NCBI RefSeq assembly: GCF_003019035.1
Contig: NZ_CP027447.1
DNA length: 64,000 bases
From: Escherichia coli
GTDB taxonomy: Bacteria; Pseudomonadota; Gammaproteobacteria; Enterobacterales; Enterobacteriaceae
Reading direction: 5' to 3' (one strand)
The notes under the pieces were generated by a model. It made no database searches. It worked only from the letters and a program-made list of their open reading frames with translations, and had not been told where the DNA came from. The stretch's first letter is position 1. Every line of letters starts with the position of its first letter. The translations under genes and the position numbers were made by a program. Below are positions 13,713 through 15,004 of this stretch, one piece after another.

Positions 13713-13841
13713 GCTACCCTCACAAATGAGGGCACCATACATAAGCAATAGGCATAACAGATCGATGCAATAAATCCGATCGATAAAAACGATCGATTTG
13801 TTATCATATCGGCAGCAGTAACCACACAAGAGGTGCCGCAA

Positions 13842-14039
13842 ATGACGCAAAATGTACGATGCAAAAATTGCAACAAACTACTTGCCCGCGCCTCATTTCA
13901 CTACATTGAAATAAAATGTCCGCGCTGCAAAACACTTAACCAGATAACGAGAGCCATCGAGCACCCCACACACATGAGGAGTTATGACCGTGGGGATCGC
14001 AATCCAGCACCAACCAGCACATACACCGGAACACACTAA
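13842..14039 (+). CDS. Mu Com-like zinc-finger translational activator
   Basis: MTQNVRCKNCNKLLARASFHYIEIKCPRCK...EHPT closely parallels phage Mu Com (RCKNCNKLL...IEI.CPRCK...EHPT); 3' end overlaps start of the downstream gene as com overlaps mom. Confidence 0.75.
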   Translation: MTQNVRCKNCNKLLARASFHYIEIKCPRCKTLNQITRAIEHPTHMRSYDRGDRNPAPTSTYTGTH

Positions 14040-14775
14040 GGTTTATCAGACTGACAATGCCACGCTCTGTCGTGGGAATGCGCTGGAAATATTGCCGCTG
14101 ATTGAGCCAGAAAGTATTGATGCCTTAATCACTGACCCGCCTTACAGTTCGGGCGCGACACACAAGGCCGGACGCACCAACCAGGGCAGCCACGCAAAAT
14201 ATCTGAACGGCGAGAACCTTCATCGCTTTGATGGGTTTGCGGGTGAAAACATGGATGCCCGTTCGTGGGCTTACTGGACACAATTATGGATGGCACAGGC
14301 ACACCGCGCAGTCAGGCCGGGCGGTTATGCCCTGGTATTTACTGACTGGCGACAACTGCCAGCTTTAACCGATGCGTTTCAGGCCAGCGGTTTTACATGG
14401 CGTGGAATCATTGCGTGGAACAAAGGAAGGGGGTCACGAACACCCCATACGGGGTATTTCCGGCATCAGTGCGAATACATCGTCTGGGGCAGTAAAGGCC
14501 ATTTAGGTAAATCGCCTTCGGGACCGTTCGACGGCTGCATGACGTTCCCGGTTATCCCATCAAAGAAAATGCACCCGACCGGAAAACCAGAAGAACTTAT
14601 GGCAGAACTGGTCAGGACTGCGAATAGTGGTGGAACAGTCCTTGATCCTTTTATGGGATCGGGAACAACGGGTGTTGCAGCACTGAAAGCAGGACGCAAA
14701 TTTATTGGTATAGAAACCAGTGATCATTATTTTGATGTAGCAACACAACGGCTCAAAACGGCGATCGAACCATAA
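13984..14775 (+). CDS. DNA methyltransferase, beta-class N6-adenine/N4-cytosine type (DPPY motif before FxGxG motif)
   Basis: LITDPPYSS (motif IV) near N-terminus and VLDPFMGSGTTGVAA (motif I) near C-terminus; SD GAGGAG 5 nt before ATG 13984, inside the com-like ORF. Confidence 0.8.
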   Translation: MTVGIAIQHQPAHTPEHTKVYQTDNATLCRGNALEILPLIEPESIDALITDPPYSSGATHKAGRTNQGSHAKYLNGENLHRFDGFAGENMDARSWAYWTQLWMAQAHRAVRPGGYALVFTDWRQLPALTDAFQASGFTWRGIIAWNKGRGSRTPHTGYFRHQCEYIVWGSKGHLGKSPSGPFDGCMTFPVIPSKKMHPTGKPEELMAELVRTANSGGTVLDPFMGSGTTGVAALKAGRKFIGIETSDHYFDVATQRLKTAIEP

Positions 14776-15004
14776 GACAAAGCCCGCAATGTTGCGGGCT
14801 TACTCTACCTCTCGAAAATGTGGTCACTGCGTGGACATACGCTGATACAAATCCTTTTATATCAAGAAATTAAATCTTTGTTTTTTTCATCAACAAGGAT
14901 TTTCACGTTTGTGTTACCTGTATGAGACGAGAGTTAACCGGACAAGTGTGCCATAATCTCGCGGCCAGGCATACTTGCGAAGATTTCAGGTATAAGGATA
15001 CGTA

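Follow-up and report, generated by a model that had tools for sequence, protein, structure and literature searches.

Probable Com-type control of an orphan beta-class DNA methyltransferase at the right end of an Escherichia coli P2-like prophage: a candidate variant of the com-mom system

Could a small com-like gene that overlaps the start of an orphan DNA methyltransferase gene in Escherichia coli govern the translation of this enzyme, as Com governs that of Mom in phage Mu, and what would such a module be for? The question is raised by a stretch of 64,000 nucleotides (nt) from the E. coli contig NZ_CP027447.1 (RefSeq assembly GCF_003019035.1), referred to below as the window, in which the two genes follow each other on the plus strand. 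The original prediction, made from the nucleotide sequence of the window alone, regarded them as a Mu Com-like zinc finger translationally coupled to a methyltransferase carried as prophage cargo. All sequence features reported in that prediction were found at the positions given there. The homology found at the protein, RNA, and DNA levels supports the view that a Com-type post-transcriptional switch gates this orphan prophage methyltransferase. The reading considered here as rather likely is that of a late anti-restriction module of the mom-operon type: a small beta-class DNA amino-methyltransferase would take the place of Mom, the whole being borne by a P2-like prophage as cargo at the end of its genome.

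The com gene and the methyltransferase

The small open reading frame (ORF), taken earlier for a 65-aa relative of Mu Com, proved to be a genuine com gene. It occupies positions 13842-14039 (from ATG 13842 to the stop codon at 14037-14039), is preceded by the Shine-Dalgarno sequence AAGAGG at 13828-13833, and codes for a CxxC...CxxC zinc ribbon matching both Pfam PF10122 (Zn_ribbon_Com, E = 1.1e-11) and the PHROG family "gpCom control of modification" (E = 2e-17). Over 42 aa of the zinc ribbon, its product is 60% identical to Mu Com (E = 1e-15). The family hallmark, i.e., the N-terminal CxxC-N(15-17)-CxxC zinc ribbon with conserved family residues, is present, and all four Cys along with R6, K12, L13, L14, E23, R28, and K30 are invariant in 25 homologues. 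RefSeq names the pair "Com family DNA-binding transcriptional regulator" and "DNA-methyltransferase"; the former product name is at odds with the published role of Com as an RNA-binding translational activator (PMC6483171).

The larger ORF (13990-14775, plus strand; the annotated start is ATG 13984, giving 263 aa) codes for an orphan beta-class amino-methyltransferase, as had been suggested from the order of its motifs. In the 263-aa numbering, motif IV (DPPY, residues 51-54) stands ahead of motif I of the FxGxG type (FMGSGTTG, residues 223-230), which is the beta-class order; the PF01555 profile matches the protein in two pieces (E = 9.5e-20 and 1.2e-10), and the protein is assigned to PHROG 67. 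It clusters with PF01555 methyltransferases, apart from 34 Mom-type proteins; the earlier claim of a com-mom architecture with the effector swapped for a methyltransferase stands as far as the enzyme is concerned. The Hia5/Hin1523 type can be set aside, since the motif order is reversed and the proteins of that type in the sampled com loci L133 and L108 belong to PHROG 56. The nearest solved relatives are adenine methyltransferases, namely 5hek (1e-20) and CcrM. The presence of DPPY instead of SPPY/F as motif IV favors N6-adenine as the target; because of this motif, the enzyme is probably an N6-adenine methyltransferase. No characterized close relative of the enzyme was found, and a search of the methylome literature for its target yielded nothing on this protein.

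The overlap of com with the start of the methyltransferase gene and the Shine-Dalgarno sequence GAGGAG (13976-13981) were described correctly in the original prediction, but the start codon proposed there, ATG 13984, is probably not the right one. The Shine-Dalgarno sequence is separated by a gap of only 2 nt from this ATG and by 8 nt from the in-frame GTG 13990; the locus L027, where com is 71% identical and the methyltransferase belongs to the same family, lacks the ATG, so that only that GTG can serve as the start; and the same GTG also opens Mu mom as well as Mom genes of the L028 type and C5 methyltransferase genes of the L034 type. On these three grounds, GTG 13990 is the more probable start. 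The overlap of the two genes, 56 nt if counted from the ATG, then amounts to 50 nt, which is exactly the overlap of com and mom in Mu.

The predicted RNA switch and its cassette

The RNA motif recognized by Com was defined by systematic evolution of ligands by exponential enrichment (SELEX) and electrophoretic mobility shift assay (EMSA): the protein recognizes CC(N)2-3GAG, presented in the hexaloop of a short hairpin with a closing C-G pair, and a second element, GAG(N)2CC (Nowacka et al., PMC6483171). In Mu, this site lies directly 5' of the translation-inhibition hairpin, whose stem contains the mom GUG (PMC6483171). In the window, a predicted Com site in the mRNA, GAGC-CAUCGA-GCAC (13951-13965, plus strand), holds the bipartite sequence CC-AUC-GAG-CA-CC at 13954-13965, i.e., an exact match to the published motif in the form CC-N3-GAG-N2-CC, with the closing C-G pair present. 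The motif runs straight into the 5' arm CCCCAC of a hairpin, the first two C of whose stem it includes; it also occurs in distant com loci.

The hairpin at the methyltransferase start, which the original prediction had proposed to look for by RNA folding, was indeed predicted at 13964-13995 (plus strand) with a folding energy of -14.3 kcal/mol. Its outer stem is formed by CCCCAC (13964-13969) and GUGGGG (13990-13995), its inner stem by CAUGA (13973-13977) and UUAUG (13982-13986), and its loop by GGAG of the Shine-Dalgarno sequence; AUG 13984 and GUG 13990 both fall within predicted stems. The z-score of the fold is -2.9, with 3 of 200 shuffled sequences folding as well; the equivalent Mu hairpin (CCCACGG/UUGUGGG) has -9.5 kcal/mol and z = -2.7. 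When a 246-nt transcript was modeled, the probability of being unpaired was 0.00 for both start codons, the Mu GUG being likewise paired. An Rfam scan of 13200-15000 (E <= 1) revealed no described RNA family at the junction, the only match being a sub-threshold sok upstream.

Comparison of 19 distinct junctions, of the Mu type and from other cassettes, showed the predicted structure kept in all of them, with five core pairs invariant, as are GCC-N3-GAGC, CCCAC, and GUGGG. The outer pair of the hairpin takes the form C-G in 13 sequences and U-A in the other 6; this exchange represents one compensatory event between two clades, accomplished by synonymous changes in both overlapping genes. Since GUGGG(G/A)A opens three unrelated effector genes (those of Mom, the C5 methyltransferase, and the beta-class methyltransferase), the GUGGG arm belongs to the control cassette and not to the enzymes. 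At distant com loci, where the arm sequences are unrelated, predicted hairpins again cover the Shine-Dalgarno sequence or the start codon (z from -2.9 to -4.7), e.g., in L083 (-11.3 kcal/mol), L071 (-14.0), L076 (-11.8; GAGCUCC pairs with the Shine-Dalgarno sequence GGAGCUC), and L077 (-13.0; CCAUGAG pairs with CUCAUGG, the AUG included). In some of these loci, the Com motif itself is the pairing partner of the Shine-Dalgarno sequence or start codon.

The breadth of this arrangement was assessed in two scans of viral contigs with Com alignments, which returned 160 loci, counted as 115 distinct junctions. A DNA-modification gene follows com in 108 of the 115: a Dam-family methyltransferase in 39, Mom in 29, a beta-class PF01555 methyltransferase in 24, a C5 methyltransferase in 11, a Hia5-type methyltransferase in 3, and another methyltransferase (PHROG 498) and an ATPase-GNAT fusion in 1 each; in the other 7, the gene was unclassified, absent, or clearly not a modification gene. 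The beta-class group, as seen in the first scan, nearly always shows the order gpD-ogr-hok-com-methyltransferase, i.e., it is found in P2-like elements.

Near-identical com genes are followed by Mom in L028 and L044 and by a C5 methyltransferase in L034 (a Mu-like phage) and L045. Each Mom/C5 pair of loci shares only 264-278 bp, a stretch that begins ~100 bp ahead of com and ends shortly after the GUG, and the DNA similarity of the window to the other cassettes likewise stops at 13996, so that the breakpoint lies just 3' of the GUG start. The com control region thus acts as a portable unit of ~265 bp, comprising the presumed promoter/GATC element, com, the Com site, and the GUG hairpin, and phages have joined it to at least four unrelated DNA-modifying families, with the junction within a few nt of the start codon.

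Two of the sampled loci deserve separate mention. In L089 (1714-3181), a Neisseria-type Com gene is followed, 82 nt past its stop, by a gene for a 401-aa fusion of a P-loop/ABC-like ATPase with a GNAT acetyltransferase (PHROG 11143), which may represent a further kind of Com-gated DNA modifier. In L083 (2992-4811; also L086-L088), com precedes a C5 cytosine methyltransferase gene and then a Dam-family adenine methyltransferase gene, the start AUG of the first lying within a GCAUCCA/UGGAUGC hairpin.

Candidate upstream control and competing explanations

A feature missed in the original prediction is the triple-GATC element of Dam/OxyR type upstream of com (13748-13797, plus strand), which begins with ATAG at 13748 and is embedded in OxyR-consensus-like sequence. 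Its GATC sites start at 13760, 13778, and 13791, i.e., with start-to-start spacings of 18 and 13; the window holds a single copy of the pattern GATC-N14-GATC-N9-GATC, the expected number being 0.01, and Mu, L027, and L069 have GATC sites ahead of com at the identical spacing. The mom promoter is known to be controlled by Dam and OxyR via such sites (PMC3378877, PMC2909390). The element aligns with the OxyR/GATC region of agn43 of strain K-12, and its matches to the OxyR consensus at 13748 and 13757 (15/20 each) are the top ones in the window, tied with one unrelated site; the same crude count gives 13/20 for Mu and 14/20 for agn43. Positions 13748-13797 constitute a candidate OxyR-binding region like that of Mu mom. 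Within this part of the window, a perfect palindrome, CCCTCAcaaaTGAGGG (13717-13732), lies directly behind the terminator of the upstream hok/sok module and ahead of the GATC element; it is kept in L024.

A candidate sigma-70-like promoter of com was recognized at 13780-13807 (plus strand): TCGATA, a 16-nt spacer, and TATCAT with an upstream TG (TCGATA-16-TGtTATCAT). It is the sole promoter-like match within 13250-15050, it overlaps the second and third GATC sites, and a -10-like hexamer is kept at the same place in L027, L044, and L045. In Mu, L054, and L069, the stretch from the third GATC to the Shine-Dalgarno sequence of com holds the C-dependent promoter segment of Mu (-35 ACCACA, 19-bp T-run spacer, -10 TAAGAT, C site), which is absent from the cassette type of the window; the P2-like prophage carries Ogr, not C. 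The sequence ACCACA at 13821-13826 was considered as a homologue of the Mu -35 element and rejected, being located only 16 nt ahead of the com ATG.

This arrangement invites a different explanation, according to which a constitutive sigma-70 promoter overlapped by an agn43-like OxyR/triple-GATC site would make the module phase-variable in the lysogen, with heritable ON and OFF states; the methylome of the host would then be reshaped by the enzyme, either in place of the protection of phage DNA or in addition to it. The overlap of TCGATA-16-TGtTATCAT with the second and third GATC, the lack of the C-dependent segment, the high OxyR-consensus scores, and the close similarity to the agn43 switch all speak in its favor, and Dam/OxyR switching is established for agn43 as well as for gtr of phage P22, the source of which states it to be unknown whether mom phase-varies (PMC2909390). 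In Mu, however, the same GATC element only represses, and does so in the unmethylated state; methylome surveys have reported related prophage methyltransferases to be silent in lysogens (PMC5778455, PMC4659465; neither deals with this enzyme), and a toxic enzyme gated by Com would be better suited to a role in the lytic phase. On balance, phase variation seems unlikely. If true, it would mean that Dam epigenetically phase-varies a second methyltransferase, with Com as a translational safety catch, so that two layers of DNA methylation would meet in one switch and E. coli populations would be heterogeneous in their methylomes.

The anti-restriction module favored here would operate as follows. 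The com and methyltransferase genes would be transcribed into one mRNA from a promoter within or beside the triple-GATC OxyR-like element. In the naked mRNA, the Shine-Dalgarno sequence and the start codon of the methyltransferase (most likely GUG 13990) would be shut in the hairpin until Com, translated from the same mRNA, binds CC-N3-GAG-N2-CC at the 5' border of the hairpin, where this site includes the first two base pairs of the stem, whereupon ribosomes could initiate at the methyltransferase start. The enzyme, probably acting on N6-adenine and possibly with broad specificity, would then modify the phage DNA before packaging and thereby protect it from restriction in the next host. Such tight, multi-layer control suggests that the methyltransferase may be harmful or broad in specificity, by analogy with Mom, Hia5, and M.EcoGII (PMC3299994, PMC5778455).

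Several observations weigh against this scheme. At the Com site, the second pair of the Mu-type 4-bp stem is an A-A mismatch, which makes the stem weaker than that of Mu. The 5' arm of the inhibition hairpin also codes for the conserved EHPT of Com, and a covariation test on the 19 junctions did not rise above the shuffle controls, giving thin support; because covariation is weak, the case for the hairpin rests on conservation across unrelated effectors and on the analogous hairpins of distant loci. When the Com site (13952-13966) was forced to be single-stranded in silico, the start codons stayed unexposed, both here and in Mu, and the minimum free energy rose by ~9 kcal/mol, this crude model being uninformative. 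Late expression is unproven, since no signal of a C-type or an Ogr-type (TGT-N12-ACA) late promoter was recognized by eye in 13706-13841, where no pattern search was run. Finally, some relatives have lost parts of the module: in L024-L026 (~2940-2960), the upstream region is 31 bp shorter and all three GATC sites are gone, and in L011 and L021 (~3137-3433), the methyltransferase ORF is cut to 68 and 99 aa in otherwise near-identical modules, which fits the occasional loss of a costly gene. In L010 (~2936), the second GATC is changed to GAAC; together with L024-L026, this locus represents a ready-made natural control for studies of Dam/OxyR regulation.

True translational coupling, as the original prediction had worded it, would require no binding of Com, or only a secondary contribution from it: ribosomes reading com would pass through the hairpin and unfold it. 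The geometry would permit this, for the com ORF spans the whole hairpin (its stop codon lies 3' of it), and the overlap of 50-56 nt is kept in most loci. In the Mu model, however, it is the Com protein that binds the mRNA beside the inhibition structure and promotes mom translation (PMC6483171); both the zinc ribbon and the RNA motif are conserved, which passive coupling does not require, and the effector gene starts past the com stop in the distant loci L074, L089, and L133. Passive coupling is therefore held to be improbable. Least probable of all is that the methyltransferase or its control is a decayed, inert remnant hitch-hiking at the prophage end, as the truncated ORFs or lost GATC sites of some relatives might suggest. 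Here, neither ORF is broken and no catalytic or S-adenosylmethionine (AdoMet) motif is missing; ~170 complete E. coli genomes and the isolated phage Chuche carry the module at 95-100% conservation, and relatives of 40-60% identity have kept the Com residues and the RNA elements.

Prophage context and comparison with known systems

Bases 13700-14820 of the window are 100% identical to two complete E. coli genomes. In an identical reference strain, a complete P2-like prophage of ~35 kb lies between pdxB and flk, with the integrase at its left end and the com-methyltransferase pair at its extreme right end, so the status of prophage cargo claimed at the outset was borne out. Of the 5426 complete E. 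coli genomes, 207 carry related copies of com and the methyltransferase gene, as annotated by RefSeq; phage Chuche has the same pair, at 99.4% identity, between ogr/hok and int.

Upstream of com, the window carries the genes of the tail sheath (10506-11690, minus strand), gpD (11716-12957), and ogr (13000-13260), followed by a hok/sok module with its terminator (13305-13705) between ogr and com. The latter comprises the Hok/Gef ORF (13452-13592), a sok match on the plus strand (13305-13462; 47 bits in Rfam, where the gathering score is 59 and thus is not reached), and an intrinsic terminator at its end (13678-13705), which isolates com from transcription arriving from upstream. Just past the methyltransferase stop, near the right end of the prophage and its right attachment site (attR), lies a G+C-rich stem-loop with no strand assigned (14780-14801), having a T-run on its minus-strand side only, so that its role as a plus-strand terminator is uncertain; the host gene flk follows at 15005. 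The earlier remark that no restriction endonuclease partner is adjacent also holds: the methyltransferase has no cognate endonuclease gene beside it, its neighbors being hok/sok and ogr upstream and flk downstream.

Farther away, positions 848-6078 hold a multi-cassette invertible tail-fibre region, which can be likened to the systems known as Mu G, P1 C, or p15B Min. From GEGSALPVGVPVPWPSATPPTGWLKCNGAAF on, the C-terminal portion of the tail-fibre gene at 848-2353 (plus strand) is repeated at the head of four promoterless minus-strand cassettes (3515-3973, 3984-4451, 4462-4890, and 4901-5464). These cassettes have as neighbors a tfa-like ORF on the minus strand (2904-3515) and a gene for a serine invertase on the plus strand (~5479-6078).

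With the switch of agn43 (flu), the window shares the possession of three GATC inside an OxyR site (a candidate one in the window), the spacing in agn43 being 19 and 13; around sites 2 and 3, agn43 almost matches com cassettes such as L045 in sequence and resembles the window. The difference is that agn43 seems to have its GATC sites at the transcription start or downstream of it, if the annotated 5' end of IsrC is taken as this start, whereas those of the window overlap the predicted -35 element and spacer.

The enzyme itself invites comparison with M.EcoGII and M.EcoGI, two adenine methyltransferases of the beta class that E. coli prophages carry and that are described as silent and non-specific (Murray et al. 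2018, PMC5778455); they are unexpressed in the lysogen and harmful under constitutive expression (PMC5778455). They have in common with the window enzyme the beta-class order with DPPY first, the prophage-borne orphan status, and the host, E. coli. By its description, however, M.EcoGII differs in size (349 aa against 261-263 aa), resides in a prophage of another kind, and comes with no mention of Com. Identity of the two enzymes was considered and found unlikely in view of the length, 349 vs. 263 aa, and the differing description.

The closest parallel in the mode of control is Mu com-mom, with which the window shares a homologous Com (60% identity in the zinc ribbon), the Com motif beside a GUG hairpin, the 50-nt overlap, three GATC with spacings of 18 and 13, and the right-end position. 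It differs in the effector, a PF01555 methyltransferase instead of Mom, in the absence of the C-activated promoter segment, in a hairpin with a longer loop, an inner stem, and an extra in-frame AUG, and in the carrier, which is P2-like and not Mu-like.

The replacement of Mom by a methyltransferase is not new. Com-linked Dam-related adenine methyltransferases at the mom position were described by Drozdz et al. 2012 in FluMu (Hin1523), Pnme1 (Nma1821), and Haemophilus aegyptius (Hia5) as enzymes of almost no sequence specificity protecting DNA against many restriction enzymes (PMC3299994); Com-type regulation was proposed for these modules, and possible Com sites were noted at hin1523 (PMC3299994). 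The window repeats the order of a com homologue followed by an N6-adenine methyltransferase at the mom position, its own enzyme being only probably of this specificity. The differences are that the enzymes of FluMu, Pnme1, and H. aegyptius are related to Dam and have motif I ahead of DPPY (~residue 194), whereas the window enzyme is of the beta class, and that they reside in transposable Mu-like prophages; the sampled loci L133 and L108 are of that type.

Com was also found with a Dam homologue in phage B3, and the phage records for B3 and Smp131 annotate Com-like regulators. A further precedent is Burkholderia P2-like phage KS5, where gp21 is listed as a Com translational regulator and gp20 as an N-4/N-6 DNA methylase (Lynch et al. 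2010, PMC3091744): here too, a P2-like phage carries a 60-aa Com overlapping a pfam01555 methylase of ~250 aa. The Com-linked methylase of the GC-rich phage contig L080, which has a module of the KS5 type, is 46% identical to that of the window. In KS5, the module is situated between the tail sheath and tail fibre genes and not, as here, between ogr and att, and the pair is given there as table entries, its RNA and promoter elements not being analyzed.

In the searchable literature, no description was found of an E. coli P2-like instance of com-methyltransferase, of exact cassette boundaries common to four effector families, or of the GATC/OxyR element moved onto a promoter lacking the C-dependent segment. 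The module draws attention to an uncharacterized E. coli prophage methyltransferase, the cassette variants offer a natural sequence set for the unsolved problem of Com-RNA recognition, and the cassette itself could serve as a ready-made, tightly gated expression cassette. Overall, since Drozdz et al. 2012, the KS5 table, and the B3 and Smp131 annotations already established the architecture, down to a PF01555 methylase borne by a P2-like phage, the module is no discovery but a well-preserved example, mainly useful as a natural variant of the classic com-mom system.

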